64,000 bases of DNA from Bacteroidales bacterium (GTDB lineage: Bacteria > Bacteroidota > Bacteroidia > Bacteroidales > WRLA01). Below the pieces are notes generated by a model. It did no database searches. It was given only the letters and a program-made list of their open reading frames with translations, and was not told the DNA's origin. Shown one piece after another: positions 23,850 through 39,400 of the stretch. How positions within the stretch are numbered: position 1 is the first letter of the stretch; each line of letters begins with the position of its first letter. The position numbers and the translations under genes are program-made. Location of the stretch: assembly GCA_963676725.1 (NCBI GenBank), contig OY781463.1:2701421-2765420 (forward strand), read 5' to 3'.

Positions 23850-25502
23850 CTAATCATGATAAATCACCACCGGCAATGGTTTGCTATGCTCTATTGCATG
23901 GGTGCTGTCTATGGCTTTGCAGCCGTGGACACCCGTTACTTCAACACTAAGAATGATCGTGGTGTCTGCATAAAAGCTGGTATCTGTGCTACCGTTTTGC
24001 CAGAGGTAGGATTGAAAATTCCCCGGCCAGAGGTTAACACCATAGTCTTCACAAAAGCCGGTATCTGTTGGTAAAAGCGGAACAGGCAGAGGATGGATAA
24101 AAATCTCCTGCACTGTAGTGTCGTTCAGGTTGTTGTTATAGCCAATTACACTGACCTGATAAGCCCCGGTATCTTCATAAATATGATAAGGAAAAAATGA
24201 ATCCGAATAATTGGCCACACCGCTGGCCGGATCTCCAAAATCCCAGAAAACAGAATCCTGTGAGGCCGTATCTGTAATGGCGAAAAAGCTGGTATCCCCA
24301 ATGCAATGGCCTTCCCATGTGAAGTTGGCTTGGTTGAAGAAGGATTGGATGAAGGCGGGGAGGCCGAGGTAGGCAAGATGATTCCCGCTGCCATTATCCA
24401 GTAATACAGCCGAATCTTCAAATCTACATGCGAGCCCGGCTTCGTTTGGAAAATTGATCCTGCATAAGTAAGGCCGGCCTGACCTGGTGGTATAAATCCT
24501 TGAGTCGGGGCCTATTTGCAAAGCCCCGTATGGATTAGAGGTGGAGCTGACAGAATCTAAAAATACAGATGAATTTATGATTGCCGCAGAATCAGGCAAG
24601 CCTATATCGTATTGCATCAGGATCGTATTCCCCCCATAGTTGTAAGAGCTGAAGTAGAGTTTGCTTTCGTCCGGTGAAAACTCTATGCCATATGCATCAT
24701 TGTAAACATGACGGGGAAAGGTAAGCGGATTGCTCATTTGAGCTGTTTCATTATCAAAATCAAACAGCTGGAAAGTTTCATCCGGACAAACAGCACAGCA
24801 TATATAATTTCCTTTTATGGAGGCTTTTAAATAACCTGTTATGCTGTATGCGCTGTGCACTGCTCCAATACTGCACTCAACGGGTTGATGGTGCAGGGAG
24901 TCTTTGTCTATTAAAAATGACCTGAAAGTATTTGTTTCCCAAATGTGTGTTACTACCCAAAAAGAAGTGTCGTTTGCGTGTTTTACAGAGGTTACCATTT
25001 CGTGGGTCGGGCCGGTTAATACTTGGCCAGACCCGTTGATTACATCGCCAAGCCCACCATCAAGGTTCATATTGATGATATAGTATGATAAACCGGGGCT
25101 GCCTTGCCGCATGGGTACGGTGAACAGATAATACAAACTGTCTCTGCATGGCCAGGGGACAACAATAGCAGACATTGTTGAAGAGGGATGGCCTGTCAGG
25201 CCTTTGCCATTGGGCATGGTGTCGTGCTGCGCATTCCAAACAGAAAGGCCATCCGTATAGAAAAGCAGGTTGCCGGTACCGTCCGAAATAGAAGCACAGC
25301 CTTCACTTTGGTCAATTTGCCCATCAAATAAAGGCTGTGGGCTGCCATTAGCTGTATTGAAGGTAATGCCGGCATTATGCCCAAAATACCAATTATTGGC
25401 TTGTTTGTTTTGGGCAGATGCATAAGCAGAAAACACACACAGTAATAATATGATGATAATTTGGTTCACATTCTTTAATATTCGGACGAAACAAAAGTAC
25501 AA
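23850..25502 (-). CDS. Secreted NNWYFG-family protein (probable beta-propeller) with a PKD-like segment and the same short C-terminal tail as the P-domain paralogs
   Basis: Signal peptide ...IIIILLLCVFSAYASA, then QNKQANNWYFGHNAGITFNT...EGCASISDGTGNLLFYTDG. PKD-like FWDFGDPASG. It ends ...HSKPLPVVIYHD-stop. The track start is TTG, which overlaps a TAGATTTG -7-like box, so the real start may be the GTG 11 codons downstream. Confidence 0.75.
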   Translation of the reverse strand: MYFCFVRILKNVNQIIIILLLCVFSAYASAQNKQANNWYFGHNAGITFNTANGSPQPLFDGQIDQSEGCASISDGTGNLLFYTDGLSVWNAQHDTMPNGKGLTGHPSSTMSAIVVPWPCRDSLYYLFTVPMRQGSPGLSYYIINMNLDGGLGDVINGSGQVLTGPTHEMVTSVKHANDTSFWVVTHIWETNTFRSFLIDKDSLHHQPVECSIGAVHSAYSITGYLKASIKGNYICCAVCPDETFQLFDFDNETAQMSNPLTFPRHVYNDAYGIEFSPDESKLYFSSYNYGGNTILMQYDIGLPDSAAIINSSVFLDSVSSTSNPYGALQIGPDSRIYTTRSGRPYLCRINFPNEAGLACRFEDSAVLLDNGSGNHLAYLGLPAFIQSFFNQANFTWEGHCIGDTSFFAITDTASQDSVFWDFGDPASGVANYSDSFFPYHIYEDTGAYQVSVIGYNNNLNDTTVQEIFIHPLPVPLLPTDTGFCEDYGVNLWPGNFQSYLWQNGSTDTSFYADTTIILSVEVTGVHGCKAIDSTHAIEHSKPLPVVIYHD

Positions 25503-25530
25503 ATCTATTTGATTGTATGATGATTTTTTG
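25461..25530. repeat. 70-nt exact direct repeat, copy 1 (5' end and upstream region of the 550-aa gene)
   Basis: ttggttcacattctttaatattcggacgaaacaaaagtacaaatctatttgattgtatgatgattttttg is identical to 39331..39400. Confidence 0.95.
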
Positions 25531-25580
25531 CTGAATATTTAAGGGGATAACAATGTTTTTAAGTGCAGACCAGCTTTTAA

Positions 25581-25718
25581 ACGACAAGCCAAAACAGCGT
25601 AGTAGAGATTCAAAACCACGAGCTAAACGAACAACTGGCACTTATCAGCCAATTGGATGAAGACGAGAAAAACGCTTTGATTAAAATTATTTATTCTATG
25701 CTTACTAAAAAAGAATGA
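25581..25718 (+). pseudogene. Possible C-terminal remnant of an XRE-type HTH regulator
   Basis: Start-less open frame ...ELNEQLALISQLDEDEKNALIKIIYSMLTKKE-stop. I recall tails like this on small Bacteroidota HTH proteins. There is no start codon or HTH portion. Confidence 0.25.
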
Positions 25719-25795
25719 AGGATTTATTAGATGGGAAGGCTAAGTTTTAGGGTATGAAAAAGCCCCACATTTGCGAGGCTTAGACTATTCAATTA

Positions 25796-26098
25796 TTAGT
25801 TCAAAATTGTCTCAGAGAAGAAAATAAATAATACAATCCAAATAATTGCTGATAACCAAGAAATTCCTAGAAATAATAAAATCTTGATTAAAAACTTTTT
25901 TTCATCCTTATTTATAGTTTCAGATTTATTAACAGTTCTCAAAATCCGGAATGCATCAATCGTATTATTAACATGCCCTGTATACTTTGGGTTTTCTCTT
26001 TGCATCAAACTTTTTAATTTCTTTCTATTTGCTAAATACAAAAGAAGGGAGATACCAGCGGGTATTGTTGAGATGTAGAAAATTATAATGTTATTCAT
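25796..26098 (-). CDS. Small membrane protein, putative immunity protein for cassette H
   Basis: 100 aa with two hydrophobic helices (IIIFYISTIPAGISLLLYLA; ILLFLGISWLSAIIWIVLFIFF). It lies directly downstream of the toxin cassette on the same strand and is AT-rich. Confidence 0.55.
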   Translation of the reverse strand: MNNIIIFYISTIPAGISLLLYLANRKKLKSLMQRENPKYTGHVNNTIDAFRILRTVNKSETINKDEKKFLIKILLFLGISWLSAIIWIVLFIFFSETILN

Positions 26099-26111
26099 AT
26101 CTATATTGTAT

Positions 26112-26357
26112 TTATCTCCTTGATCCAGGACGTGACCAAAAATCTCTTGATGGAGGTGAAAAAGTTATTGTATATGAAAAGTAAAGGAACCAGCCAGCAC
26201 CAACACCAATGTTTCCACCATAACCATTTAAATTATTACCATAATGATCTCGTACAGCACCATGACTCATATCTTTATATCCTTCAAAACTAAGGGGTGT
26301 AGGCCCAATAGATAAGTTTACTCCACTTGCCCAACCAGAAAAGTCATTCATACTCAT
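26112..26357 (-). CDS. Gly/aromatic-rich 81-aa ORF, ATGA-coupled to the cassette H glycine-zipper frame
   Basis: Its ATG overlaps the TGA of the upstream frame (aaaaATGAgt). It contains RDHYGNN, which resembles the [10 protein letters not shown] and EEHYISGSLY termini of cassettes B and F. Confidence 0.4.
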   Translation of the reverse strand: MSMNDFSGWASGVNLSIGPTPLSFEGYKDMSHGAVRDHYGNNLNGYGGNIGVGAGWFLYFSYTITFSPPSRDFWSRPGSRR

Positions 26358-27198
26358 TTTTTATTGGTTTGTGAATAACCCATTCCAGCACTTGCACCCC
26401 AACCAATAACTGCACCTAATGTTAAATACATCTTTGAGTTTCCATAGCTATCTACAACAGCTCCAATATCTCCCATTGCTCCAAATCCAGCAGCAGCGGC
26501 ACCGTTAGCAACTGAAATAACTTGGCCACGATTATCTTCATCACCCCACCAGCTGAGCCTTTATTCTCATTTGTTTTATCTATTTTATCTGTTTTGTTTT
26601 TTTTCTTGTCGCCATCACCCTCAATCTCATCAAAATTGATTTCATATCCATGCCACAATCCTTCTGGATCTTCCATCCATTGCGACCAAATGTCACAATC
26701 ATCAAAACCATGTGGATTCATCCCCGTTGGATCGATAAATTTAATAGGGTTATTAAAGCTATTGTTATATGGGCTCCAGCAATTCATTTCTTCTGCTTTT
26801 GGGTCAACAGAATGCCACCGGGCGATTTGAGGGTCATAAAACCTCGCCCCATAATCATACCAATCCAAACCAAAATCATCCTGCAGCTCACTTCGACTAC
26901 GCTCAGTGCAACGCTTTCCATTATACTTGTATTTATTCTCAGGGCTGGAGTTGGCAGAACTCAAACCGGCAATGTTCATCCCAAAAGGATAATAGGCATC
27001 TTCCTGCAAGACATTTCCGTTTTGGCTGAGGCTAATGCGGGTGTTTCCCAAATGGTCTTTCAGGAAGTACTGGTATTCGTATGTGTCCTCGTTTTGCTTC
27101 ATAATGCGGCCTTCGGAAGTGAGGATAAACTGGAGTTGGTTGTTTTCATACACAAAATTAGCAATATAATCGGATTGGTCAAGAGCACTGCCATCGGA
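26354..27198 (-). pseudogene. Rhs C-terminal toxin cassette H (frameshifted; glycine-zipper type C-terminal domain)
   Basis: Rhs core end SDGSALDQSDYIANFVYENNQLQF...LKDHLGNTRISL...QEDAYYPFGMN...[44 protein letters not shown]...NNPIKFIDPTGMN. The reading frame breaks near 26550-26560. The alternative frame (26354..26560) reads RLSWWGDEDNRGQVISVANGAAAAGFGAMGDIGAVV...GAVIGWGASAGMGYSQTNKK-stop. Confidence 0.7.
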
Positions 27199-27212
27199 TT
27201 ATTCGAGCTTTT

Positions 27213-27380
27213 TATTTGCCCGTCAAACACTGCCTGTGGGCTGCCATCTATGGTGTTAAAGGTGAGCCCGGCATGTTGTCCAAAATACCAATTATTGGCT
27301 TGTTTGTTTTGGGCATAAGTTAGTGTAGCTCCCAGAAGGAAGCTGGTCAATGTTATAGTATTTGTTGTCCGAAAAAACAC
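27213..27380 (-). pseudogene. Leader fragment L1: signal peptide plus the first ~33 residues of an NNWYFG-family gene, joined out of frame to cassette H
   Basis: MFFRTTNTITLTSFLLGATLTYAQNKQANNWYFGQHAGLTFNTIDGSPQAVFDGQI parallels residues ~28-64 of the 23850..25502 protein. Homology ends at FDGQI, and a TAA precedes the Rhs frame. Confidence 0.75.
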
Positions 27381-27449
27381 GAAACAAATATATGAATTTA
27401 ATAATCTTGCTTCTAAATAAAATGGGGGTTGGCGATATTATTTTATGCC

Positions 27450-27596
27450 CGAAAATCAACAATCATTGTCAGTCAGCTACCTGCGGCAAGCTGGTTCAAT
27501 ATCATTGGCGAAGCTACTATTGCCGATGCAATATTGGACCGGTTGATACATACTTCCCACAGAATTGAATTAACAAGGAGACAGTTTAAGAAAAAA
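27450..27596 (+). mobile_element. Remnant of the IS21-family helper ATPase IstB (C-terminal ~50 aa only)
   Basis: IIVSQLPAASWFNIIGEATIADAILDRLIHTSHRIEL matches the IstB C-terminal pattern (S-N/Q...W...G[DE]..[AL]A.AILDRL.H.[AS]H.[IL].L). There is no Walker region, transposase or terminal repeats. Confidence 0.6.
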
Positions 27597-27731
27597 AGTA
27601 ATATTGTCAGCCAATCGCGTTCTTTAATAACTTTACGAATCAGACGGGTCAATATCACCGGAATGTGCATTAATATTATACGGTGATGTTTTCTCTGCTT
27701 GTTCCTGTTCTTTTGATTTTATGAAGCAGTT

Positions 27732-27977
27732 TTAATTAAGTAAACAATACAAAAAAGCAATAAAATTAATCACAATAAAGGCATAAAGTGCAATACTGTA
27801 ATAAGATGTACTCCTGTATTGTGAAATATATTGGTAAAGAACAAAACTCAATAAACACGATGTAACTACTTGTACAGCAACTCCAGTTATTGATAAAACA
27901 AGATTAATCTCTGTGTTGCACAGATTAATAGAGAATGAAATACAAATTAATGCAGCTATAAAAAGTTTTTTTTTCAT
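27732..27977 (-). CDS. Small membrane protein, putative immunity protein for cassette G
   Basis: 81 aa with three predicted TM helices. Its start lies 2 nt after the toxin stop. Confidence 0.55.
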   Translation of the reverse strand: MKKKLFIAALICISFSINLCNTEINLVLSITGVAVQVVTSCLLSFVLYQYISQYRSTSYYSIALYAFIVINFIAFLYCLLN

Positions 27978-27979
27978 TT

Positions 27980-29185
27980 TTAATCATTTTCTTTTGAATA
28001 AACTAACTTTAATGAAAAATCAAGTGAAACATGGAGTACGCCGCCGGGTGTAATGATCAAAGGAACTTTTCCCCCTATTGCAGCACCTGTGCTTATTGTC
28101 GTTGAATTGTTCATGTTACTTATTGTTGTCTCACTTTGAGTAAAAGGTACACCAGTGCCTATGGTAACTGTTGCTTCAGAATTTAGATTTGGATCAATAG
28201 TATATTCAACCCCGTACCCTTTTGCCTGTGCTACCAAATTTAAGGAAGGATTTTCATTCTTTTCCGTTACAATATCCACCTCAGTTTTACCTGTATATAG
28301 TTCTGTTTCTGATTTAGCAGTAATACTAGTTTTATTCAATTCTATTGCAGCTCCGCCGCCCGCTTCTCCTTTAATATTATAAGTAACGCCTAACTCCTCA
28401 CTTACGGATCCTTCAAGTTTTGTTTCCAGCGTCGTGTTTTCAATAATATCATTTATTTTATTTTTTATACTTTTTATTGCTGATCGTAAAAGATTATATG
28501 CGGTAGTTTGAATCCTGTGGGCAATATAATTTTTGACTCTGTTTTTAAAGTCTTCATCTCTTGGGTCTGGCACATCATCAAATTCATGGTCGTTAGCCCC
28601 ATTAGGGTCAATACGCCCCAATGGGTTATTTTGAACATAGTTAAACGGGCTTAGCCATTCTCTTTCTTCTGTTTTAGGGTCGGATACGTGCCATCTGCCA
28701 ATAGAGGCATCATACATCCTCGCCCCGTAATCATACCAATCCAGGCCAAATTCATCCTGCAATTCCTTGCCGTTGTATTTGTATTTGTTTTCGGAACAGG
28801 AGTTGTTATAGCTTAAGCCTTTTATATTCATCCCATAGGGGTAATAGGCATCTTCCTGTAAAATGTTCATATCTTCATCGAAGGTAATACGGGTATTGCC
28901 CAGGTGGTCTTTCAAAGAATACTCATAAGAGGAACTGCCATCCTCATGCATTACTATCCTGCCATGGTTTGCCATTAAATAGGCAAGCTCCGTATTGTCC
29001 CCGTTTACATCAGAATACACAAAACGTCCGGCATAGTCAAACGTTTTGGATATCTGGTGGTCGATGCGGGTCTGTTTCCGCAGCTTTGTGCCAGTGGCCG
29101 TATATAGGTAATTGATTCCCTGCATAATGGTGCTTCTGGAACTTGTTCCGGTTACAATCTGCAAATAATTACACGCGATAATCAT
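27980..29185 (-). CDS. Rhs C-terminal toxin cassette G (beta-rich C-terminal domain of unknown family)
   Basis: ATG start. Conserved ...TGTKLRKQTRIDHQISKTFDYAGRFVYSD...LKDHLGNTRITF...QEDAYYPYGMN...YKYNGKELQDEFGLDWYDYGARMYDASIGRWHVSDP...NNPLGRIDPNGAN, followed by a unique Gly/Thr/Ser-rich domain with an alternating pattern. Confidence 0.75.
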   Translation of the reverse strand: MIIACNYLQIVTGTSSRSTIMQGINYLYTATGTKLRKQTRIDHQISKTFDYAGRFVYSDVNGDNTELAYLMANHGRIVMHEDGSSSYEYSLKDHLGNTRITFDEDMNILQEDAYYPYGMNIKGLSYNNSCSENKYKYNGKELQDEFGLDWYDYGARMYDASIGRWHVSDPKTEEREWLSPFNYVQNNPLGRIDPNGANDHEFDDVPDPRDEDFKNRVKNYIAHRIQTTAYNLLRSAIKSIKNKINDIIENTTLETKLEGSVSEELGVTYNIKGEAGGGAAIELNKTSITAKSETELYTGKTEVDIVTEKNENPSLNLVAQAKGYGVEYTIDPNLNSEATVTIGTGVPFTQSETTISNMNNSTTISTGAAIGGKVPLIITPGGVLHVSLDFSLKLVYSKEND

Positions 29186-29414: not shown

Positions 29415-29735
29415 TTAATTACCTTTAAGTTCTTTTATAAAGTATATTGGTGCATAAATTATATTTAAAAATATTAACAACAATAAATTTATAGTGCTAT
29501 CTTTTCTGTTTTTCCAAACTATAATATTGTATATCCAAAAAACAAAAGCAACTAATCCTGTCAATCTGGCTAATAAACTAGATGTGTACAATCCTATTTT
29601 CTCGGCTATCACTTTCTTTGCTTCATAATTATCAGCAGTCAGTAAAAAAATTGGAATTAGCAATATTAATAAAACATACACAATGCTAATTATCCAAAAC
29701 ACTATCCATAAATTTTTTTTTCTCATATTTCTCAT
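29415..29735 (-). CDS. Small membrane protein, putative immunity protein for cassette F (apparent paralog of 38032..38331)
   Basis: 106 aa with three or four TM helices. The C-terminal half FVFWIYNIIVWKNRKDSTINLLLLIFLNIIYAPIYFI aligns with FGFSIYNLYIWAKYDKRITIFFLLFFLMGLYTPFYYL of the cassette A partner. Confidence 0.6.
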   Translation of the reverse strand: MRNMRKKNLWIVFWIISIVYVLLILLIPIFLLTADNYEAKKVIAEKIGLYTSSLLARLTGLVAFVFWIYNIIVWKNRKDSTINLLLLIFLNIIYAPIYFIKELKGN

Positions 29736-29739
29736 ATTT

Positions 29740-30885
29740 TTAATAAAGAGACCCAGATATATAATGTTCTTCTATTGGATCATCTTTTTCTTTAGGGATT
29801 TCTATTGTTTCTGTTTTAGTTTTTGTCCTTTCATTATCTATATATTCAACACCAATAACTGCTTTAATGCCGAGTAAGATCGCTTTAACTCCTACTCCTA
29901 TTTCATAGCCTATTGAATTGGTTGTTGTAATGCCCTCATCACTTTCAACTACTGTCTCCTTAGACACAAGTGCCTGTATTTCTGTTTTTGACTTGGCAAA
30001 CGTTGGGTGTTCGTCTATAGCATATTCGCTTGATGTTGATTTTCCTCCACCTGGAATTTCTATATTTACCTCATAGTTAACATTTTTAGATTCTTGATTA
30101 AACAAAAACTTAACTTTACCTTCAGGCGTAATACTTAACCCAACTTTAGTCTCTCCAACTACTTTTCCACCACTAATTCCAAGATCTAAAACATCTCCAT
30201 AACTCAATCCAATTTGAGGACCAAAACTTCCCGTAAATTTCAAATAAATCTGCGTTGTTCCAGCTGGCGGATCACCTGGACCCATTCCCATCCAATCTAT
30301 ATAATGGATAGGATGATTAGCCGCATAAACAAATGGTGATTGAAAACTATATTTCGTAGCTAAGGGGTCAAGCGTGTGAAATCGGGCAATAGCTGGGTCA
30401 TAAAACCTCGCCCCATAATCATACCAATCCAAGCCAAAATCACCTTCCAACTCACTTCGACTACGCTCAGTGCAACGCTTTCCATTGTATTTGTATTTAT
30501 TCTCAGGGCTGGAGTTGCCAGAATTCAATCCAGCAATGCTCATCCCATAGGGATAATAGGCATCTTCCTGCAAAATATTCAGGTTTTCATCAAAGGTAAT
30601 GCGGGTATTGCCCAGATGGTCTTTTAAAGAGAACTCATATAAGGAACTGCCATCCTCATGCATTATTATCCGGCCTTGGTTGGCCATTAAATAGGCAAGT
30701 TGGGTATTGTCCCCATTTTGGTCGGCATACACAAAGCGGCCGCTATAATCCCATGTGGCAGACACTTGATGGTCGATCTTTGTCTGTTTGCGTAGTTTAA
30801 TGCCATTGGCTGCATATGAAAAGTTCACTGACTGCATAATCGAACCGTTGGTATTTGTTCCGGTACTATTAATCTTTTGAGGCAA
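29740..30885 (-). CDS. Rhs C-terminal toxin cassette F (orphan; no ATG at the homology boundary)
   Basis: The track start is TTG, six codons after a stop, and the homology boundary is sharp and shared with cassette C. Conserved block ...NGIKLRKQTKIDHQ...LKDHLGNTRITF...[44 protein letters not shown]...NHPIHYIDWMGMG. The C-terminal domain is unique and beta-rich, ending EEHYISGSLY. Confidence 0.75.
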   Translation of the reverse strand: MPQKINSTGTNTNGSIMQSVNFSYAANGIKLRKQTKIDHQVSATWDYSGRFVYADQNGDNTQLAYLMANQGRIIMHEDGSSLYEFSLKDHLGNTRITFDENLNILQEDAYYPYGMSIAGLNSGNSSPENKYKYNGKRCTERSRSELEGDFGLDWYDYGARFYDPAIARFHTLDPLATKYSFQSPFVYAANHPIHYIDWMGMGPGDPPAGTTQIYLKFTGSFGPQIGLSYGDVLDLGISGGKVVGETKVGLSITPEGKVKFLFNQESKNVNYEVNIEIPGGGKSTSSEYAIDEHPTFAKSKTEIQALVSKETVVESDEGITTTNSIGYEIGVGVKAILLGIKAVIGVEYIDNERTKTKTETIEIPKEKDDPIEEHYISGSLY

Positions 30886-31014
30886 ATTTAATAAATTACA
30901 CTTTTAAAATGTCGAGTTTTTGGGGAAGCTTACACATAATAATAAATATGTTTTTTAATTTAAAGCAAGCTCTCTAATTCCAAGTGCGTATGGATAATAC
31001 AGTGAGTTGTAATA

Positions 31015-31719
31015 TTAATCAATCTCTTTGTCTTTCAATCTGGGGTCGGCAATTAATATATAATCTTCCGAAACTCCTTTATAGAAACCCAAATTTTCAA
31101 TAGTGTATTTTTCCGTTAGCATAGTGTCAATTACAACTCCGTTATTAGTTAATTTATAAATTGTTGAAGATTGATAATAAACGCTGTCAGGTGTACAATA
31201 TGCTTCATGGAGGTCCGATCCTCCTAATTCAATAGTACCATCACCGTCTAAATCTCCATAATAAGAAGCTTTAGTTTTAGTTATCAATATACACTTCTCG
31301 TCTTTAATCTCCAATATATGATAATTATTCCCGAGAATTGGATCAAATTCCTCCAAAATTAAATATTCTAAATTATCCAGTACTAAAAACTTTACGCGAC
31401 CCCTATTAAGATAAAAGGATTCATTAGTTAGACTATTATAGACCAGATTTGACCTAATATATAAGCTGGGGTGAAGGTAAATCGTATCTCCTTTATCAAC
31501 TAGTCCTGAATCTGGTGCCACAATATATACTGAATCATTTATGTCAACCAACAAGAAGTTGTTTTTTTCTTGCTTTATGTCAATATCATAAGTTGTTTCA
31601 AGTTCGTATAGTGCATCTGGAATTGATGAGTGCTTTTGATTTTCAATAGTTGAATTATTGCAAAAACAACCAGAAAATAGAAAACAGCCGATTATGTAGA
31701 ATAATTCTATTGGCTTCAT
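31015..31719 (-). CDS. Lipoprotein, putative immunity protein for cassette E
   Basis: I chose the start MKPIELFYIIGCFLFSGC (lipobox LFSGC), ATG at 31719, 4 nt after the toxin stop. It contains a DGDG motif (YYGDLDGDGTIELGG). Confidence 0.6.
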   Translation of the reverse strand: MKPIELFYIIGCFLFSGCFCNNSTIENQKHSSIPDALYELETTYDIDIKQEKNNFLLVDINDSVYIVAPDSGLVDKGDTIYLHPSLYIRSNLVYNSLTNESFYLNRGRVKFLVLDNLEYLILEEFDPILGNNYHILEIKDEKCILITKTKASYYGDLDGDGTIELGGSDLHEAYCTPDSVYYQSSTIYKLTNNGVVIDTMLTEKYTIENLGFYKGVSEDYILIADPRLKDKEID

Positions 31720-31723
31720 AATT

Positions 31724-32923
31724 TTATTCAATGTCCCCGTCCTCAAACCTTCCTCCTTTCGTAAAGTCAAACCACCAACCTTCTTGAACAACCATTTCAT
31801 CATTACTACTTGAATTTTGAGAAGGGCTTTGTGTGACATTTTTACCAAACACTTGATTCTTAATGATTATCATGATCAAATTTATAAATGAAAGAGGATT
31901 TTTGTCTGAACTTTGATTATTCAAGTACATATTAGACTTAGGTCTGCTAGGCCTATCATCTACAGCTGTTTTATCTTTGTTTAAAATAAAAAATTGCGGA
32001 GATGATTTAGAGCCAAATGTTTGCGAGATAGTGCCAACTTTATTTATTTTGCCTACATTCATTACTAAAACCTCATCCTCGCTTTTAGGAGAAACCACAG
32101 CAATATGACCACCAAATTTCCCGGGTTTCTCTCCACTACCATCATTTGATACATAGGAGGCGATGACTGTTATTCCTTTTTTTGCATAATAGATAGCATT
32201 CTTTTCATTAACAGGCGTTGCGAAATTGTTGTTGACGTACTTGCCAACAGCTCCTCTAAGCTTCCAGCCCATTTGATTAGCTGTGTAATCATTTATTTCA
32301 TAGTCTCCTAAAGAATAGTCCCTGGCTTGATTCAAAATATACTGAACTCCAATATTACAATATGTAGTTTCACCATTCTTGGGCCATTTTTTAATAGCTT
32401 CATTGCCAGCCGCAATTAAACCTTTTATTGTTGGGAAAATTCCATTCCCATCTGGGTCTATAAAAACAATGGGATTGTTAGTAGCGTAGTTATAACACGA
32501 AAATGAATAAAATTCTTCTGAAAGCATATCCAAGACAAACCATCGTCCTAGCCCTGCATCATACATCCTCGCCCCATAATCATACCAATCCAAACCAAAC
32601 TCATCCTGCAGCTCACTTCGACTACGCTCAGTGCAACGCTTGCCGTTGTATTTGTATTTGTTTTCGGAGCAGGAATTGCTATAGCTTAAGCCTTTTATAT
32701 TCATCCCATAGGGATAATAGGTATCTTCCTGCAAGACATTTCCGTTTTGGCTGAGGCTAATGCGGGTGTTTCCCAAATGGTCTTTCAGGAAGTACTGGTA
32801 TTCGTATGTGTCCTCGTTTTGCTTCATAATGCGGCCTTCGGAAGTGAGGATAAACTGGAGTTGGTTGTTTTCATAAACAAAGTTAGTAATATAATTGGTT
32901 TGGTCAAGAGCACTGCCATCGGA
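31724..32923 (-). CDS. Rhs C-terminal toxin cassette E (candidate papain-fold Cys/His amidase or peptidase C-terminal domain)
   Basis: The frame is open from 32923 (SDGSALDQTNYITNFVYENNQLQF...) and the first ATG is at 32827. Core end ...YKYNGKRCTERSRSELQDEFGLDWYDYGARMYDAGLGRWFVLD...NNPIVFIDPDGNG. The C-terminal domain has TTYCNIGVQYIL (Cys) and FGGHIAVVSP (His), as in NlpC/P60/CHAP-like enzymes. Confidence 0.7.
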   Translation of the reverse strand, partial: SDGSALDQTNYITNFVYENNQLQFILTSEGRIMKQNEDTYEYQYFLKDHLGNTRISLSQNGNVLQEDTYYPYGMNIKGLSYSNSCSENKYKYNGKRCTERSRSELQDEFGLDWYDYGARMYDAGLGRWFVLDMLSEEFYSFSCYNYATNNPIVFIDPDGNGIFPTIKGLIAAGNEAIKKWPKNGETTYCNIGVQYILNQARDYSLGDYEINDYTANQMGWKLRGAVGKYVNNNFATPVNEKNAIYYAKKGITVIASYVSNDGSGEKPGKFGGHIAVVSPKSEDEVLVMNVGKINKVGTISQTFGSKSSPQFFILNKDKTAVDDRPSRPKSNMYLNNQSSDKNPLSFINLIMIIIKNQVFGKNVTQSPSQNSSSNDEMVVQEGWWFDFTKGGRFEDGDIE

Positions 32924-32937
32924 TTATTCGAGCTTTC

Positions 32938-33102: not shown

Positions 33103-33261
33103 TTAAATGTAATTCCCTTTCTAACTAGAAGATTGCACTCTGACGTTAAGTGTTCCGCCGGATTCACAATGTTTTGAATACCATGGCATAGTATATATTA
33201 ATTGATATATAATATTATGCTACTATTTGCAGTCAAGCTAAATATCAATGTTTTATTCATA

Positions 33262-33459
33262 TTATTTTTTTTTCAAATATGAATAGGAAAATTCAGCGAA
33301 CATATAGCCAATATATATTCCTGCCTGTAAAAAAAATAAATATGTAAATACTTTGTGCAAACGTTCATGTAGAAAGAAAAAAAATAAAAAATATAACCAA
33401 AAAACCAAAACTACAATGATGCGCGAATTAGAGGCAAGCCAATATTTAAAACCATTCAT
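33262..33459 (-). CDS. Small membrane protein (second immunity-type ORF after cassette D)
   Basis: 65 aa with two TM helices. It overlaps the upstream small ORF by 14 nt. Confidence 0.4.
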   Translation of the reverse strand: MNGFKYWLASNSRIIVVLVFWLYFLFFFFLHERLHKVFTYLFFLQAGIYIGYMFAEFSYSYLKKK

Positions 33460-33670
33460 CTTTCTTGAGATTAATTGCTGATATTAATATAGCGAAAAGC
33501 ACTATTAATTCTGATATTCCATATAGCTTAGAATACTTATATTCAATATACTCTCCAAAAAATATTGAAAACAGAATTTGTGCGAAACCAATTACTAAAC
33601 TAGTAATATGAATCTTTTTTGCTAAACTGTTATTCAAACTCTTCTTTTTCCTTTCTTTTTTTCGCTTCAT
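33446..33670 (-). CDS. Small membrane protein, putative immunity protein for cassette D
   Basis: 74 aa with a basic N-terminus and two TM helices. It overlaps the 3' end of cassette D by 41 nt. Confidence 0.45.
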   Translation of the reverse strand: MKRKKERKKKSLNNSLAKKIHITSLVIGFAQILFSIFFGEYIEYKYSKLYGISELIVLFAILISAINLKKDEWF

Positions 33671-34817
33671 TGATTAAGTGTTTTTCCCATCTTTTTATCC
33701 GATCCTTCTCATAGTCTTCTTTTTGTTTCTTATCAGCATTTTCCCAAGCGTCTGGGTCTGTTTTTTTAATGTGCTTGCCAACAACTGACTCAAAATCATT
33801 TAGACGATAAAATCTAGTATTTTTGTCTTCATTTGGATTACTAAAAAATTCTTTTCCCATATCTCTTCCTTTTTCATCTTTTTCGTTTTGTGTTTGGTCG
33901 TATGGCCTCTTTGAAGGATCCTTATTAAAAAGATGATTAAAAGCATCTGCCGCTGTGGCAATTGTTACCACTACTGCCGCGGTCACAAGTTTAGGATTTC
34001 CTTCCGGATTACCTTTCGGCTTTCCTTCACCACATGAGTTGAGGTTTGAGTTGTTTTTTCCTATATTTTTACTATGATTTCTAGCATTCTTCAGTTTCTC
34101 CTTTTGAGAACGAACCTCTCTATTTTCTTGTTCTTGTCTTTCGTCACGAAGATCTTCCCAATATTTATAAGTTATATATGTAGTTATGGCTGTAGTAGTT
34201 ACCGCTGCTTGATAAATAGTATAAATGATAAAAGGGTACTCTCCATTCTTATCTATAAATATAACAGGGTTATTGACTGCATAAGCATATGTTGTTTGAA
34301 ATCGATACAATTCAGCTTTGGGATCAATTGAATGAAACCTCCACAAAGCCGCATCATACATCCTCGCCCCATAATCATACCAATCCAAACCAAACTCATC
34401 CTGCAGCTCACTTCGACTACGCTCAGTGCAACGCTTGCCGTTATACTTATATTTATTCTCAGGGCTGGAGTTGGCGGTACTCAAACCGGCAATGTTCATT
34501 CCAAAAGGATAATAGGCATCTTCCTGCAAAATATTCAGGTTTTCATCAAAGGTAATGCGGGTATTGCTCAGGTGGTCTTTTAAGGAATACTCATATGCAG
34601 GGCTGCCATCTTCCTCTATCGTGATGCGCCCCTGTGCAGCCATTAAATAAGCAAGCTCCGTATTGTCCCCGTTTACATCAGAATACACAAAACGTCCGGC
34701 ATAGTCAAACGTTTTGGAAACTGGTGGTCGATGCGGGTCTGTTTCCGAAGCTTTGTGCCAGAGGCCGCAATAGGTAGTTAATTCCCAGTATGATAGTGTT
34801 CCTTGAGCTTGTTTCAC
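33630..34817 (-). CDS. Rhs C-terminal toxin cassette D (5' region frameshifted relative to cassette G; TM-plus-charged C-terminal domain)
   Basis: ...SKTFDYAGRFVYSDVNGDNTELAYLMA...LKDHLSNTRITF...YKYNGKRCTERSRSELQDEFGLDWYDYGARMYDAALWRFHSIDP...NNPVIFIDKNGEY. Upstream of SKTFDY the DNA matches cassette G but lacks 1 nt (ggaaactgg versus ggatatctgg). The C-terminal domain has a TM-like YPFIIYTIYQAAVTTTAITTYITY and a long K/E-rich tail. Confidence 0.7.
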   Translation of the reverse strand: MKQAQGTLSYWELTTYCGLWHKASETDPHRPPVSKTFDYAGRFVYSDVNGDNTELAYLMAAQGRITIEEDGSPAYEYSLKDHLSNTRITFDENLNILQEDAYYPFGMNIAGLSTANSSPENKYKYNGKRCTERSRSELQDEFGLDWYDYGARMYDAALWRFHSIDPKAELYRFQTTYAYAVNNPVIFIDKNGEYPFIIYTIYQAAVTTTAITTYITYKYWEDLRDERQEQENREVRSQKEKLKNARNHSKNIGKNNSNLNSCGEGKPKGNPEGNPKLVTAAVVVTIATAADAFNHLFNKDPSKRPYDQTQNEKDEKGRDMGKEFFSNPNEDKNTRFYRLNDFESVVGKHIKKTDPDAWENADKKQKEDYEKDRIKRWEKHLINEAKKRKEKEEFE

Positions 34818-34902
34818 TTAAGCTGATCTTTTAATGTAAATTTGATCAATAATACTTTTAAAATGTCCATTTTATTGAGAAGCCAACATCTATTAAAATC
34901 TA

Positions 34903-35280
34903 TTATTCCTTATATATTATGATTCCATTAATTTTTAGTTTTCGATCGTTAACAACTTTTACCATATGCTCTCTTTTGTCTATGAATGCTGGTGAAAATG
35001 TTTCCATGAGGCCATATTTATAACATTTTAATACTATACCTCTATTTCTTTTATAACTCCATGTTCCTTTGCATGTTTTATGTGAATAATTACCGATAAT
35101 TCTTAAGTTAAAAGTGCTGTCACTGTTCAACTGCAAAATATAGTAATATTCATTTTTTGTTGGGCGGCTCTTATATATGCCTTGAAAATTATCATGTTGC
35201 ATGTAATAATTTGAGCTACATGAGAATAGCAATATAATAAGAAATAGATGCAAGTTAGTCCTGATAATAATAATCCCCAT
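34903..35280 (-). CDS. Lipoprotein, putative immunity protein for cassette C
   Basis: 125 aa, MGIIIIRTNLHLFLIILLFSC (lipobox). It overlaps the toxin 3' end by 26 nt. Confidence 0.55.
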   Translation of the reverse strand: MGIIIIRTNLHLFLIILLFSCSSNYYMQHDNFQGIYKSRPTKNEYYYILQLNSDSTFNLRIIGNYSHKTCKGTWSYKRNRGIVLKCYKYGLMETFSPAFIDKREHMVKVVNDRKLKINGIIIYKE

Positions 35281-36526
35281 AAGTATCTCCTTTTACTATA
35301 CTTTCATTACTTGGTAGATTTTGTAATGCTTTATTATTTGGATACGCCTTAAGCCAATCTTCCCTCTTAGAATAAATGTCTAAAGGATATTGTGCCGTAT
35401 TAGCCTTTCCATTAGGCCCATAAAAACTACCGTCATCTATATTTTTCACCCAACTTCGGGTAATTAGCTCATATTTATTCGCAATTCCATAAGATTGAAT
35501 ATTTTGAACAGAGACTGGGGAAACATTAAACTGCGCCCGATAGGCTTCCACTTCATTTTTAAGATCGACTAAAAAAGCTAATCCACTGGATTTGAAAAAA
35601 GCTATTTCCCCTTCCATAAATTGTTTAACATGCGTCACCTCATGGATTAGTACAGCAGCATTAGTATAAATAACATTAATTTTATTATCCTCTAATAATT
35701 CTAGAGTGCCAGCTTTCCCATTTACGGAACCTTCCATCGGCGTCAATACAAACGTCTGTTCCTCAGTGGCCTCCATATCATCCATGTGTTTAAGAGATAC
35801 CTTTAAACGAAATATCCTCTTATTTAGCCTTTCTTTTTTCTTTTCGCTGTTTTTTTCAGTATGTAGCTTATTGGTCAGCCTCCCTACTAATTTTTCCAAA
35901 AATCTTCTTTGACGCTCAAACTCTTCTTGACTGGCAGGGTCAATATCCATTCCTGTGGGATCTGTATAGCGAACGGGATTATTTGCAAACATTCTGTATG
36001 GACTAATTGGGTGGTATTTTTCAAGAAGCGGATCCATGCTTAATGTCATGGTCAGAGAAGCGTCATAGAATCTTGTTTCAAAATCATAGCAATTTAGTCC
36101 AAAGTCCTCCTGATGTTCTTTGCCGTTGTATTTGTATTTGTTTTCAGAACAGGAATTGTTATAGCTTAAGCCTTTTATATTCATCCCATATGGGTAATAG
36201 GCGTCTTCCTGTATAATGTTCAGATCTTCATCAAAGGTAATGCGGGTATTGCCCAGATGGTCTTTTAAGGAATATTCATAAGATGAACTGCCATCCTCAT
36301 GCATTACTATCCTGCCATGGTTTGCCATTAAATAGGCAAGTTGGGTGTTGTCCCCGTTGTTGTCTGCATAAATAAAGCGGCCGCTATAATCCCATGTGGC
36401 AGACAATTGATGGTCGATCTTTGTCTGTTTGCGTAGTTTAATGCCATTGGCTGCATATGAAAAGTTCACTGACTGCATAATCGATCCACTGGTATTTGTT
36501 CCGGTACTATTAATCTTTTGAGGCAA
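35255..36526 (-). CDS. Rhs C-terminal toxin cassette C (HExxH metallopeptidase-like C-terminal domain; orphan, TTG at the boundary)
   Basis: It has the same 5' homology boundary as cassette F. ...YKYNGKEHQEDFGLNCYDFETRFYDASLTMTLSMDP...NNPVRYTDPTGMD. The C-terminal domain contains AAVLIHEVTHVKQFMEGE. Confidence 0.7.
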   Translation of the reverse strand: MPQKINSTGTNTSGSIMQSVNFSYAANGIKLRKQTKIDHQLSATWDYSGRFIYADNNGDNTQLAYLMANHGRIVMHEDGSSSYEYSLKDHLGNTRITFDEDLNIIQEDAYYPYGMNIKGLSYNNSCSENKYKYNGKEHQEDFGLNCYDFETRFYDASLTMTLSMDPLLEKYHPISPYRMFANNPVRYTDPTGMDIDPASQEEFERQRRFLEKLVGRLTNKLHTEKNSEKKKERLNKRIFRLKVSLKHMDDMEATEEQTFVLTPMEGSVNGKAGTLELLEDNKINVIYTNAAVLIHEVTHVKQFMEGEIAFFKSSGLAFLVDLKNEVEAYRAQFNVSPVSVQNIQSYGIANKYELITRSWVKNIDDGSFYGPNGKANTAQYPLDIYSKREDWLKAYPNNKALQNLPSNESIVKGDTYGDYYYQD

Positions 36527-36544
36527 ATTTAAAAAATATATTCA

Positions 36545-36739: not shown

Positions 36740-36787
36740 GGCACACTTCCAAGTAGATTTTTATTACACGCTATCCTAATGTAAAAA

Positions 36788-37264
36788 TTATTTAATATTT
36801 AAGTTGTCAATCACTGCTATAATGTTTTTTAGGTCACTGTCTTTCCATTGATTAACTCTACTTTCCATTATCTCTGCAATATATTTATCTTGGTTTTTAA
36901 AAACCAACGTGTTTTTGCGAATACCATATCCAACTTTTTGTTTGTAGTACTCATATTTAAGCAAATAATACGGAATGGAAACCGATCGTTTCCAAAAGAT
37001 ATATCTATAATAGAAAATAGTACATAGCTGTTTATTCTCGGAAAATGCAACTTTATAAACCACTCTGCCTTTATTGCGACTTATCATTAATATTATAATC
37101 AAAAGAACAATTAACTGAATACCTATCCAATACGTATAAAAAAAAGAAGCACCTTTAGCAATAAAAACAAAATTTATAATTGGTAGGATGTTAAATTCTG
37201 AATTATACTTACTATACCAATAAAACTTTTTTTTAAAAACCTTCATAATGGGTATTTTATTCAA
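36788..37264 (-). CDS. Membrane protein, putative immunity protein for cassette B
   Basis: 158 aa with two TM helices near the N-terminus followed by a soluble domain. It lies 17 nt downstream of the toxin stop. Confidence 0.5.
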   Translation of the reverse strand: MNKIPIMKVFKKKFYWYSKYNSEFNILPIINFVFIAKGASFFYTYWIGIQLIVLLIIILMISRNKGRVVYKVAFSENKQLCTIFYYRYIFWKRSVSIPYYLLKYEYYKQKVGYGIRKNTLVFKNQDKYIAEIMESRVNQWKDSDLKNIIAVIDNLNIK

Positions 37265-37281
37265 TTTACATGAATGTTGTG

Positions 37282-38001
37282 TTAATAAAGTGATTTATTT
37301 CTATAGTGATCACGCAATGCTTCTTCAGTTGGATCCATCTCTTCTACCTGTTCTTTAGGATTCATTGTTTTATTAATAATTTCATTAAAATTCTCTTTTA
37401 CTGAATTTATCGCATTTTGAATTTTACCACCAACAGATTCAAGGAATTCTTTACCGGAGGATACAATAAACTTGGTCGGTTCAGAGGCAGTAACAAGCAT
37501 ATTTGCACCCGAAACAGCACCGTCTATTGTATATTTAGGAGATCCTCCTGTAAGGCCGACTCCTAAATCCACTACAGCCCCTGCTTCTCGTAATCCTGAA
37601 CCTTCCATATCAAAAGCTTTTTCGGCAGTAGCTGCTGTTAATTCACCTAAGCCTCCCGGTACATTGTTCTCCCCATCATTAGCGGCACCATCAATAATTT
37701 GTGCCGTACCCAGAGCAATTGTTCCACTCCCGCTTATAATTAAAACTACACCAGCTGGACCCCCAACTCCCGTCGCAGCTAGACCAACCCCTCCGACCCA
37801 TTGGGTAACACCTCCAGCAACAGTAAGGCATCCTAGAGCAACATCCCAGCCATCTTCTCCGTTAATATCAATAAATCTCATTGGATTATTATATGTATAA
37901 TGGAATGGGGTTAATGAATAGTATTTTTCAGCTAAAGGATCAACAGCATGCCACCGGGCGATTTGAGGGTCATAAAACCTCGCCCCGTAATCATGTCTTA
38001 A
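37282..38001 (-). pseudogene. Rhs C-terminal toxin cassette B, 5'-truncated within the core (starts at ..[10 protein letters not shown]); glycine-zipper C-terminal domain
   Basis: The open frame from 38001 reads [52 protein letters not shown]... and the first ATG is at 37881. The C-terminal domain is Gly-rich ([29 protein letters not shown]) and ends [10 protein letters not shown]. Confidence 0.7.
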
Positions 38002-38031
38002 TCACCTGCCAACAAATTATAGTGAAATACA

Positions 38032-38331
38032 TTATACCCACCCTTTTCTTTTTGCATTAAGATAATAAAATGGGGTGTACAGTCCCATAAGAAAGAAAAG
38101 AAGGAAAAATATAGTTATTCTTTTGTCGTATTTCGCCCATATGTATAAGTTATAAATAGAAAATCCAAACGTTACATATGATAATATACTACGAATACAG
38201 GAAAAAACATCCCCAATTAAAATATCTTTTAAAAACATTAATTTGAATATCGATGAAAGGAAAATACCAATGAATACTGCAAATAATAAAAAATTCGATA
38301 TTAGTGCGACGGTTAATACAGTTTTTTTCAT
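38032..38331 (-). CDS. Small membrane protein, putative immunity protein for cassette A
   Basis: 99 aa with three TM helices. It is an apparent paralog of 29415..29735. Confidence 0.6.
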   Translation of the reverse strand: MKKTVLTVALISNFLLFAVFIGIFLSSIFKLMFLKDILIGDVFSCIRSILSYVTFGFSIYNLYIWAKYDKRITIFFLLFFLMGLYTPFYYLNAKRKGWV

Positions 38332-38343
38332 AATAAATATTAT

Positions 38344-39372
38344 TTAATAAAGTTCGCCATTTCTAAAATGCAACAGCATTGCCTCTTTTATAGGAGATAA
38401 TGTTGGAGTAATAGATTTTGATTTATTATTATCCAAGTCAGAATTGTTGTTATTGACCTTATTGCTACTGGGTGTATATTTTATTTGTAATTCTGCTCCT
38501 ACTCCTACCATAAGAGCATTTACACTTTGACTTATTCCGAAACCAAAGCCGTCACTACTTGCAGACACTTCGGCGCGACCAGCTCCTACAGAAACAGTTG
38601 GTTTAGGGTCATCATCTTCTTTGGCTTTATTTTCAGTATTCGATGATATTATTGGACTGACATTTGTCTTTGAGCTTTCAAATGTGTATGGTCCCAAACT
38701 GAGAGAATAATTGTCAAAATGTCCTTCGGTTGTAACTCTGTTAAATTCAGGACATACATTGAAATTACCAGTTTCGGTATCGTAGCTAAAAGAGATGGTA
38801 AGTGTATTCTTTAGGCTTCCGTCAAAATCATAATTTAAACTATATGGTGTTTGAGTAAAAGGAATCTTTCCGCTAAAACCAATGCTTCCACTACCCATAG
38901 ATAAAGAAAAACTAAAAGACCATTCATCATTTCCATCTGGATCTATATAAAAAATAGGATTGTTATTAACGTATAAATAGGGAGAGGTGTTGTGATTTCC
39001 CTCTGATAAATTATCAATCACATGCCACCTCCCCAAAACCGCATCATAAAACCTCGCCCCGTAATCATACCAGTCCAATCCAAACTCATCCTGCAGCTCA
39101 CTTCGACTACGCTCAGTGCAACGCTTGCCGTTGTATTTGTATTTGTTTTCGGAGCAGGAATTGCTATAGCTTAAGCCTTTTATATTCATCCCATAGGGGT
39201 AATAGGCGTCTTGCTGCAAAACAGTTCCGCTTATTCTATGGGTGACGGGTATTTTATCGAACCGAATCAATGACAATTGCTTGGCTTCTAATGCACAATA
39301 AGCGGTACCATTTGTATGTATGGATGCGGTTTGGTTCACATTCTTTAATATTCGGACGAAACAAAAGTACAA
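38344..39372 (-). CDS. Rhs C-terminal toxin cassette A, fused at its 5' end to a copy of the first 14 codons and upstream region of the 550-aa gene
   Basis: The N-terminus MYFCFVRILKNVNQ is identical to that of 23850..25502 (part of the 70-nt repeat; TTG start). It continues ...LQQDAYYPYGMNIKGL...[43 protein letters not shown]...NNPIFYIDPDGND. The C-terminal domain is beta-rich and ends LLHFRNGELY. Confidence 0.7.
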   Translation of the reverse strand: MYFCFVRILKNVNQTASIHTNGTAYCALEAKQLSLIRFDKIPVTHRISGTVLQQDAYYPYGMNIKGLSYSNSCSENKYKYNGKRCTERSRSELQDEFGLDWYDYGARFYDAVLGRWHVIDNLSEGNHNTSPYLYVNNNPIFYIDPDGNDEWSFSFSLSMGSGSIGFSGKIPFTQTPYSLNYDFDGSLKNTLTISFSYDTETGNFNVCPEFNRVTTEGHFDNYSLSLGPYTFESSKTNVSPIISSNTENKAKEDDDPKPTVSVGAGRAEVSASSDGFGFGISQSVNALMVGVGAELQIKYTPSSNKVNNNNSDLDNNKSKSITPTLSPIKEAMLLHFRNGELY

Positions 39373-39400
39373 ATCTATTTGATTGTATGATGATTTTTTG
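39331..39400. repeat. 70-nt exact direct repeat, copy 2
   Basis: Identical to 25461..25530, offset by 13,870 nt. The flanks diverge on both sides. Confidence 0.95.

Follow-up and report, generated by a model that had tools for sequence, protein, structure and literature searches.

A strain-variable orphan Rhs array between pabA and pabBC in an uncultured Bacteroidales species, with dispersed 5' fragments of a conserved Rhs-associated gene family

The window analysed here, a stretch of 64,000 nucleotides (nt) of contig OY781463.1 from an uncultured Bacteroidales species, carries at 23.85-39.55 kb a strain-variable accessory island of about 16 kb, set between the divergent genes pabA and pabBC. 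The island contains, on the minus strand, eight truncated Rhs toxin/immunity cassettes (A to H) and a single intact gene for a secreted beta-propeller protein, called here the terminal gene. Cassettes begin with conserved Rhs stretches (heads), some groups of cassettes are preceded by leaders (L1 to L4), which are 5' stubs of genes of the terminal gene family, and the array is bracketed by an exact direct repeat, R70. Taken as a whole, the locus is probably an orphan Rhs array turned over by homologous recombination, whose stubs derive from paralogues of the terminal gene, and which plays the role of a reservoir.

The array was compared in four conspecific genomes, namely the source contig (5.19 Mb) and strains S2 (ERZ21831104), S3 (ERZ25042269) and S4 (ERZ21878363), all of them metagenome-assembled genomes (MAGs) with contigs of 1.9-5.2 Mb. 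Flanks that are 98-100% identical enclose four different arrays, with lengths of 14.1, 10.4, 15.9 and 9.7 kb and 8, 5, 7 and 5 heads, respectively. All share a common frame, in which pabC and pabB, directed outwards, are followed by L4, R70, the cassettes, R70 again, the terminal gene and pabA. Blocks shared among the arrays are 82-97% identical (94-96% for the cassette G block in S2-S4), occur in other orders and combinations, and end in heads or leaders. The original prediction, that the repeats mediate deletion, expansion and reshuffling of cassette groups, is thus borne out in four strains, with breakpoints in heads and leaders. Orphan Rhs arrays are regarded as reservoirs for changing weapons, which collect immunity genes, and their cassette traffic has mostly been inferred from single genomes; here, four near-identically flanked genomes record cassette gain, loss and reordering at defined repeats, with a coding motif of about 35 nt as a crossover point.

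The right-hand conserved flank is pabA (23097..23672, minus strand; Pfam GATase, E 1e-47), coding for the glutamine amidotransferase subunit of aminodeoxychorismate synthase, whose product is called as 191 residues in strain S2. The left-hand one is pabB-pabC (39591..41172, plus strand; Pfam Chorismate_bind, E 5e-57, and Aminotran_4, E 3e-10), where pabB homologues carry the name aminodeoxychorismate synthase component I. The four long-read MAGs that bear paralogues of the terminal gene have no close pabB, and more distant outgroups were therefore taken for synteny, the nearest available being L084 (pabB 59% identical) and Prolixibacter bellariivorans (56%). In both, pabA and pabB-pabC are divergently adjacent, with nothing between them. 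Since the two units adjoin in these outgroups, the island, with its terminal gene, splits an ancestrally contiguous pab cluster, as had been proposed. It had also been considered that related genomes might have the two units separated by the propeller gene alone; in these two outgroups the adjacency was found. GC content is 35-36% in the array and 37-41% in the flanks, a weak signal of foreign DNA. An integrase-mediated genomic island was considered and rejected: no integrase was found in or beside the array (open reading frames (ORFs) of the window, Pfam), a tRNA scan found no tRNA in the window, and the flanking repeat, instead of an att site, is simply the 5' region belonging to the terminal gene.

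The repeat itself proved to be of 71 nt, rather than the 70 first reported: positions 25460-25530 and 39330-39400, 13,870 nt apart, are identical, and repeats of 68-71 nt (100% identity) stand at both ends of the array in the three other conspecific genomes. Copy 1 (25460..25530, minus strand) is the native 5' region of the terminal gene. It had been described as 28 nt of upstream sequence followed by the first 14 codons of a gene of 550 residues, which was the length given by the ORF list, starting from TTG 25502. Public calls for the identical protein and for a 97% identical one give 539 residues from GTG 25469, and the TTG coincides with the last three bases of a proposed promoter box, TAGATTTG; because the public calls start at this GTG, R70 is more likely composed of 61 nt of upstream sequence and 3 codons. 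Both copies contain two boxes, TAGATTTG and TACTTTTG, located 38 and 30 nt before the GTG and conforming to TAnnTTTG, the Bacteroidetes -7 consensus. Copy 2 (39330..39400, minus strand) provides this promoter-like region, the GTG (39339) and the three terminal gene codons in frame with cassette A. Boxes and GTG precede cassette A in all four strains, and in S2 and S4 gene callers begin the cassette A ORF at this very codon.

Only R70 is a copy of the adjacent terminal gene. The four leaders, all on the minus strand, are homologous direct repeats of the same family, as anticipated, but they come from diverged paralogues and not from the neighbouring gene. L1 (27213..27392, homologous stretch 27213-27380; tblastn and blastn) contains a complete signal peptide and about 55 codons of a paralogue, and is 86% identical to the N-terminus of the L008 paralogue versus 65% to that of the adjacent gene. 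L2 (32938..33102; tblastn) has the same breakpoint as L1, and its 3' part is 95.5% identical to L3 (36545..36739; tblastn), which is 5'-truncated and lacks the signal peptide in this strain. L4 (39432..39530), detected as a member of the repeat family, is a relic of a 5' end, with a hydrophobic signal-like segment followed by FAQNKQPNK; it is cut after about 30 codons and abuts the region upstream of pabB. Signal peptides, attributed by the original prediction to the leaders in general, are found in L1 and L2, while L3 has lost that part and L4 is a short relic. In tblastn comparisons L1, L2 and L3 are 65%, 50% and 47% identical to the N-terminus of the family over 43-49 residues (73-83% by blastn); L4 aligns over 36-49 nt, with 79-84% identity, to the AQNKQANNWYFG-coding position of at least 14 paralogues. 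In S2 and S3 (L080/L081, about 9400-9850; window ~39440) a repeat-rich insertion of 355-460 nt lies inside L4, bordered by duplicated AAATAGTGT and rich in a GTGCTGAGCG.AGCCGAAGT motif; it is absent from the window and S4 and has the look of a miniature inverted-repeat transposable element.

About 14 leader copies, over the four strains, fall into two junction classes, each with one breakpoint common to all its copies. In J1, family codon ~61 is joined to residue ~46 of the Rhs head (L1, L2 and one copy each in S2 and S3); in J2, codon ~68 (..EGC[AS]SI) is joined to the Rhs head at '...YNFLNLPQK' (L3 and eight copies in S2-S4). A third junction, J3, joins R70 to the head of cassette A, and a fourth joins L4 to R70. 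The breakpoint shared by L1 and L2 reads ...GGGCAAAT|A/G..AAGCTCGAATAATCCGATGGCAGTGCTCTTGACCAA, which the leader frame translates as GQI/M.SSNNP and the Rhs frame as KKLE*SDGSALDQ. The duplicated segment comprises leader, Rhs head and core (486 nt, 89% identity), and the toxins differ. The view that this chimeric junction was formed rarely and then propagated is upheld, whereas its duplication together with toxin payloads is not, only leader, head and core being shared.

The retention of these stubs could also be due to selection for portable promoters, which drive the cassette groups for expression of the immunity genes, their action as recombination sites being secondary; this is possible but rather doubtful. 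All three junction types retain the extreme 5' end of a terminal gene paralogue, never an internal piece; R70, with its two boxes and its start codon, stands at the array head of the four strains with 100% conservation and provides the start called for cassette A in two of them; and L1 keeps a homologous box, TATATTTG, 12 nt upstream of the GTG of the leader. On the other side, L3 and four counterparts in other strains have lost their whole upstream part together with the signal peptide; L2 has no box within 300 nt, and the leaders show no mutual conservation in the sequence that precedes them. A scan for sigma-70 promoters and terminators, a model not applicable to Bacteroidota, was at background (76 found versus 65±9 expected), and a scan for TAnnTTTG was used in its place. 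Judging from sequence, it is plausible that the boxes of R70 and L1 are putative promoters, which would transcribe the array so that immunity genes get expressed. As a separate observation, a perfect TAAATTTG box, also of the TAnnTTTG type, occurs on the minus strand in cassettes C (36524-36531) and F (30883-30890), with 5 nt separating it from the 'LPQKI' at which their heads start; it arose from slight alterations of the Rhs coding sequence ...NF(M/L)NLPQK and is a putative internal promoter.

Homologous recombination, as the process that turns the array over, is documented by three recombinants. In leader S4_b, the part 5' of the NNWYFG-coding motif matches L1, together with the upstream IS21 remnant, at 95% identity, and the part 3' of it matches J2-type leaders at 83-84% and L1 at 60%. 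Comparison of the S3 terminal gene with that of the window gives 100% identity through position 25391, which falls in the same motif, then 42-68% for about 1 kb, and 95-100% from 24383 on. Both the swap of the gene body in S3 and the S4_b crossover thus fall within the AQNKQANNWYFG-coding motif of about 35 nt. The terminal genes L002 and L024, from other species, are 93% identical to the window gene at the nucleotide level from codon 18 to the stop, in unrelated flanks. Among 27 paralogues (L002-L028) from five genomes, identity at third codon positions is 61-70% in the last ~170 codons (window 23850-24383) versus about 40% elsewhere, a pattern which indicates DNA-level homogenisation of the 3' segment. 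Because crossovers fall inside extended homology, recombination is homologous and not site-specific; the Rhs heads and, in the terminal gene, the 5' motif and the 3' third all behave as homology arms.

These observations also bear on an integron-like or rAID-like capture, in which the repeated leader sequence would serve a site-specific recombinase as the insertion point for cassettes. The rAID-1 systems of Bacteroidales are arrays of immunity genes with repetitive intergenic sequence and active acquisition (bioRxiv 10.1101/471110), and in the present array, likewise, cassette groups have a repeated element between them. Crossovers inside extended homology are, however, the hallmark of homologous recombination; the repeats can be recognised as pieces of genes, whose similarity is graded (60-100%), toxin fragments are kept and not immunity genes alone, and in none of the four strains was a XerD-type or other recombinase found, as ORF or Pfam match, within the array or beside it, so that such a capture is very unlikely. 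The mobile elements present are a C-terminal remnant of IS21 IstB (27429..27686, plus strand; Pfam IstB_IS21, E 8e-11, profile positions 183-234 of 238), which is the sole trace of this kind in the window array and is conserved in strains S2-S4, and an insertion sequence (IS) which one strain carries in addition. The remnant lies just upstream of L1 and co-travels with L1-type leaders in other strains, including the recombinant S4_b.

It is likewise hardly credible that the leader-Rhs units are real, or recent, genes for small Sec-exported Rhs toxins, composed of a signal peptide, a propeller N-terminus of ~55 residues, a Rhs tail and a toxin, in which the frameshifts and stops would represent recent decay. 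L1, L2 and several copies in S2-S4 do hold intact signal peptide ORFs with start codons, and orphan-sized proteins (370-450 residues) far outnumber full-length ones among the closest homologues. Nevertheless, in all of the approximately 14 leader copies the leader ORF meets a stop, or runs in another frame, ahead of the Rhs frame, a conserved TAA being present in the Rhs frame of J1, and a TGA in the leader frame plus a TAA in the Rhs frame of J2. Moreover, we know of no export or encapsulation function for a Rhs tail devoid of the shell that forms the Rhs/TcBC cocoons. Since no leader is joined in frame to a Rhs fragment, the signal peptides give the toxins no export role.

Finally, although all sequences are MAGs and Rhs loci are repeat-rich, an assembly artefact, with collapse or chimerism across similar Rhs loci, can practically be set aside, as four independent assemblies with contigs of 1.9-5.2 Mb agree on the frame (pabBC, L4, R70, cassettes, R70, terminal gene, pabA) and on the junctions, and the repeats, which are diverged and no longer than 600 nt, pose no problem for long reads.

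As to the origin of the cassettes, each module consists of the last 48-195 codons of a Rhs shell, a RHS-associated core and a unique C-terminal toxin (CT), with one or two small ORFs behind it. The seven cassettes other than B match TIGR03696 (Rhs_assc_core) with E values from 1e-12 to 1e-17, all past the curated cut-off; cassette B retains only the last ~48 core codons. The heads are 72-92% identical at the nucleotide level over 300-600 nt, and the cassettes become mutually unrelated after the IDPDG/IDPTG/TDPTG/IDPNG end of the core. They begin within the Rhs reading frame, with no native start or export signal, and cassette A alone has a borrowed start, provided by R70. A head of the same type corresponds to residues ~790-1000 of proteins of 1,184-1,207 residues in L010 and L026, in which DUF6443 (E 1e-28 to 4e-36) is combined with RHS; since the same head lies inside these full-length proteins, the window cassettes are 3' fragments of DUF6443-RHS toxin genes. 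No large or full-length Rhs ORF was found within the window, where, as in S2-S4, the array abuts pabB, and profile scans of the window ORFs found no DUF6443, SpvB, FG-GAP or TcdB_midN region and no multi-repeat RHS shell; the Rhs fragments have no propeller part, and there is no TcA-like gene. In an exhaustive protein search, matches to the heads at 65% identity or more (65-76%) were all orphan-sized; full-length relatives run to 1,100-2,300 residues. The small ORFs behind every cassette code for 65-277 residues, several being membrane- or lipoprotein-like, and are candidate immunity genes. No toxin CT or candidate immunity ORF had a significant Pfam match, so that both roles were assigned from architecture.

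The terminal gene (23850..25469, minus strand, 539 residues from GTG 25469) codes for a secreted beta-propeller and PKD-like protein, identical to the public protein P0329. In the AlphaFold2 model, residues 25-370 are predicted to form a propeller (predicted local distance difference test, pLDDT, 70-92), followed by the PKD-like region; the conserved C-terminal third has a pLDDT below 50, and a signal peptide is predicted. Foldseek retrieved only generic 7-bladed propellers and one propeller and PKD S-layer protein, with no functional lead. The subfamily comprises proteins of 524-565 residues, with several paralogues per genome. Its genomic context was surveyed at 30 close-subfamily loci from four other genomes, all long-read Bacteroidales MAGs. 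Rhs sequence was found upstream, on the same strand, in 23 of the 30, and at no locus downstream or on the other strand; for more distant members of the family, which bear a C-terminal domain of the type IX secretion system (T9SS), Rhs was nearby at one locus in 48. The Rhs linkage of the subfamily is a robust result, and in related Bacteroidales its members are conserved as the last gene, at the 3' end, of Rhs loci. The gene had been taken as a resident neighbour of the array, an assumption which does not hold: it is an integral, conserved end gene of Rhs loci and is itself swapped between strains. Upstream of the paralogues there are classic orphan arrays (L018), DUF6443-RHS genes (L010, L026) and SpvB/FG-GAP/TcdB_midN/RHS fusions of 2,100-2,270 residues (L007, L019, L025). 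Locus L011 has two terminal genes 9 kb apart with Rhs between them, a precursor-like state for a deletion between modules.

A further ORF, of 570-640 codons, was noticed at some of these loci, directly upstream of the full-length Rhs genes in L007 (253-1962) and L025 (154-2076) and at comparable positions in L020 (1688-3607), L023 (2204-4123) and L011 (2470-4371). The two copies scanned (L007, L025) had no Pfam match; it may be another uncharacterised component of Rhs toxin loci.

From these data we infer the following order of events. A few illegitimate events would have joined the 5' end of terminal genes to the 3' part of Rhs genes, producing J1, J2 and J3, either by tandem duplication of a unit extending from a Rhs tail to the start of a terminal gene, or by deletion between consecutive modules, each running from Rhs to terminal gene. 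The junctions would then have spread through homologous recombination, which acts on dispersed direct repeats, these being the Rhs heads, the leaders (especially the ~35-nt motif) and R70, and duplicates, deletes, reorders and replaces cassette groups and even the body of the terminal gene. Transcription of the array from the boxes of R70, and of L1, would allow the immunity genes to be expressed. The pab locus has no full-length Rhs gene, and its cassettes are devoid of start codons and export signals of their own, which precludes deployment of the toxins from this site. The present roles are most likely those of a bank of immunity genes and a reservoir of cassettes; persistence of the array with no adjacent full-length delivery gene favours the immunity bank over a weapon role.

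Several points weigh against this reconstruction. Tandem duplication and inter-module deletion, as origins of the junctions, cannot be told apart. Neither L2 nor L3 has a TAnnTTTG box, and the enrichment of this motif on the array strand (~2.4-fold) is partly due to repeated coding sequence. The assignment of toxins and immunity genes follows from architecture and by analogy with the Rhs paradigm (PMC3967940). The protein library, clustered at 50% identity, yielded no full-length Rhs protein whose head is a close match, as the best of them attain at most 51% over that part; re-activation of the cassettes is therefore doubtful, although a matching main gene may lie elsewhere in the 5.19-Mb genome, of which the window was scanned. 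Lastly, shared blocks (82-97% identical) are more diverged than the flanks, hence part of the variation is import of diverged alleles and not intrachromosomal rearrangement.

Going further, and only tentatively, the propeller/PKD subfamily might be a dedicated, co-evolving partner of Bacteroidales Rhs/Tc-like toxin loci, for example a secreted targeting or receptor-binding component. Its 5' motif and homogenised 3' third would, with the Rhs core, be the handles of a recombinase-free exchange of cassettes (toxins, immunity genes and the variable body of the propeller) across loci, strains and species, and the pab array would be a parentless cassette and immunity bank, transcribed from a captured R70 promoter. 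The linkage between Rhs and secreted propellers was previously unannotated, and makes these proteins concrete candidates, either as an accessory factor of the toxin systems or as their second homology arm.

In Enterobacteria, orphan rhs-CT fragments lack initiation and export signals and are activated through recombination with the main rhs gene (PMC3967940). Arrays of orphan rhs-CT/rhsI modules, such as Salmonella Typhimurium STM0291/0292 (Koskiniemi et al. 2014, PMC3967940), resemble the one described here in the tandem CT fragments, each with a conserved core stretch, a unique toxin and a downstream immunity ORF (here a candidate one), in the lack of initiation and export signals, and in the rearrangement by homologous recombination through the conserved stretch. 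They differ in that the window array has no main rhs gene at its head and abuts pabB in four strains, that its parents are Bacteroidota DUF6443-RHS proteins, and that recombination has a second set of repeats in a conserved downstream gene family, whose 5' stubs are interspersed in the array. The window array is thus an orphan Rhs array as defined by those authors, save that it has no main rhs gene at the head, and no concept is overturned. As regards Tc-toxin TcB/TcC (the BC cocoon) and DUF6443-RHS proteins, the full-length relatives located beside terminal gene paralogues are SpvB, FG-GAP, TcdB_midN and RHS fusions (L007, L019) or DUF6443 and RHS proteins (L010, L026), with the toxin behind the RHS-associated core; the window holds only the last 48-195 shell codons, the core and the toxin.

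The rAID-1 arrays (2019, bioRxiv 10.1101/471110; PMC12247911) share with the present one the occurrence in Bacteroidales, a strain-variable orphan array larger than 10 kb with genes of immunity type (here candidates) and a likely protection against toxins of neighbours; their repeats between genes have a partial counterpart in the leaders. They are defined by a conserved XerD-family tyrosine recombinase at the array head and by integron-like intergenic repeats, whereas no recombinase was found at the window array, the repeats are fragments of a neighbouring gene, placed before only some of the cassettes, and sizeable toxin fragments with Rhs cores are kept. The Rhs arrays of the bee-gut symbionts Snodgrassella and Gilliamella (Steele et al. 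2017, PMC5727410; PMC8125069) are likewise reported to have many CT cassettes per locus, extensive recombination and strain-level turnover. They differ in being linked to the type VI secretion system (VgrG/PAAR) and in lying beside full-length rhs genes. A conserved terminal gene whose fragments punctuate the array is, to our knowledge, not known from them. A full-text literature search found no paper mentioning DUF6443, and a literature search aimed at Rhs orphan arrays generally, not at this feature, found no description of a terminal gene whose 5' stubs punctuate a Rhs array.

The single modules are listed in their order along the minus strand. Cassette A (38032..39329; TIGR03696, E 3e-14) is formed by a Rhs fragment with its CT (38344-39329) and a 99-residue membrane ORF (38032-38331). 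Cassette B (36788..37994), recognised from ORFs, repeat family and tblastn, consists of a core end with a glycine-rich CT (37282-37881) and a 158-residue ORF (36788-37264). Cassette C (34903..36537; ORFs, TIGR03696) has a Rhs fragment (35255-36526) and a 125-residue ORF (34903-35280); its CT contains a metallopeptidase-like HEVTH (HExxH) motif, with a weak match to DUF6782 (E 0.0075, below threshold). Cassette D (33262..34896; ORFs, TIGR03696, tblastn) has a Rhs fragment (33630-34817) and two small ORFs (33262-33670). Cassette E (31015..32937; TIGR03696) combines a Rhs fragment (31724-32827), whose CT shows a Cys...His pattern and no Pfam match, with a lipoprotein-like ORF (31015 to about 31722). 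Cassette F (29415..30942; ORFs, TIGR03696, tblastn) has a Rhs fragment (29740-30885) whose head starts from 'LPQKI', and a 106-residue membrane ORF (29415-29735). Cassette G (27732..29185; TIGR03696, E 1e-17) has a Rhs fragment (27980-29185) and an 81-residue membrane ORF (27732-27977), a candidate immunity gene. Cassette H (26452..27212; TIGR03696, E 1e-14, tblastn match of the head) is a Rhs C-terminal fragment with a head starting from about residue 46 of the reference head, a core and a unique CT, and is followed (25796..26357) by ORFs for a 100-residue membrane protein, a candidate immunity gene by its position, and for 81 residues, with no Pfam match.

Two additional features of the cassettes were observed. 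An in-frame insertion of 24 nt, NGK[RCTERSRS]EL at the protein level and CGTTGCACTGAGCGTAGTCGAAGT at the DNA level, is present in five of seven Rhs cores, namely H (26880-26906), F (30444-30470), E (32605-32631), D (34400-34426) and A (39090-39116), all on the minus strand; it is absent from cassettes C and G and from the cores of other genomes viewed in full (L018). A 17-mer within it, CTGAGCGTAGYCGAAGT, is a genome repeat motif, with 12 matches in the window versus 0 expected, which suggests that the insertion is repeat-derived and was spread among cassettes via gene conversion. The otherwise unrelated toxins A (38344-38370), B (37282-37310) and F (29740-29770) share a similar tail (...HFRNGELY, ...HYRNKSLY and ...HYISGSLY, respectively); this may be a common motif of the boundary between toxin and immunity gene, with a role in function or in recombination.

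Outside the island, context genes with T9SS C-terminal domains mark the host as a T9SS-bearing member of Bacteroidota; they code for a 1,339-residue protein (2643-6662, minus strand) and for a 2,027-residue SprB-repeat protein with a type-B domain (51191-57274, plus strand). A unit of 467 nt is present twice in tandem, with 99% identity, at 21047-21986, and at the equivalent position strain S2 has an IS (DDE_Tnp_1, 429 residues). No Rfam family was matched in an Rfam scan, including by a tandem array at 47027-50350, made of units of 240-266 nt in about 13 copies (74-94% matches), which contains the CTGAGCGTAGCCGAAGT motif, the same as in the Rhs core insertions, and CCCGCAGATTACGCGGATTTTCGCAGA. 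Further tandem repeats are located at 60234-61066 (280 nt, three copies, 97% matches) and at 10388-10459 (11 nt, 6.5 copies).

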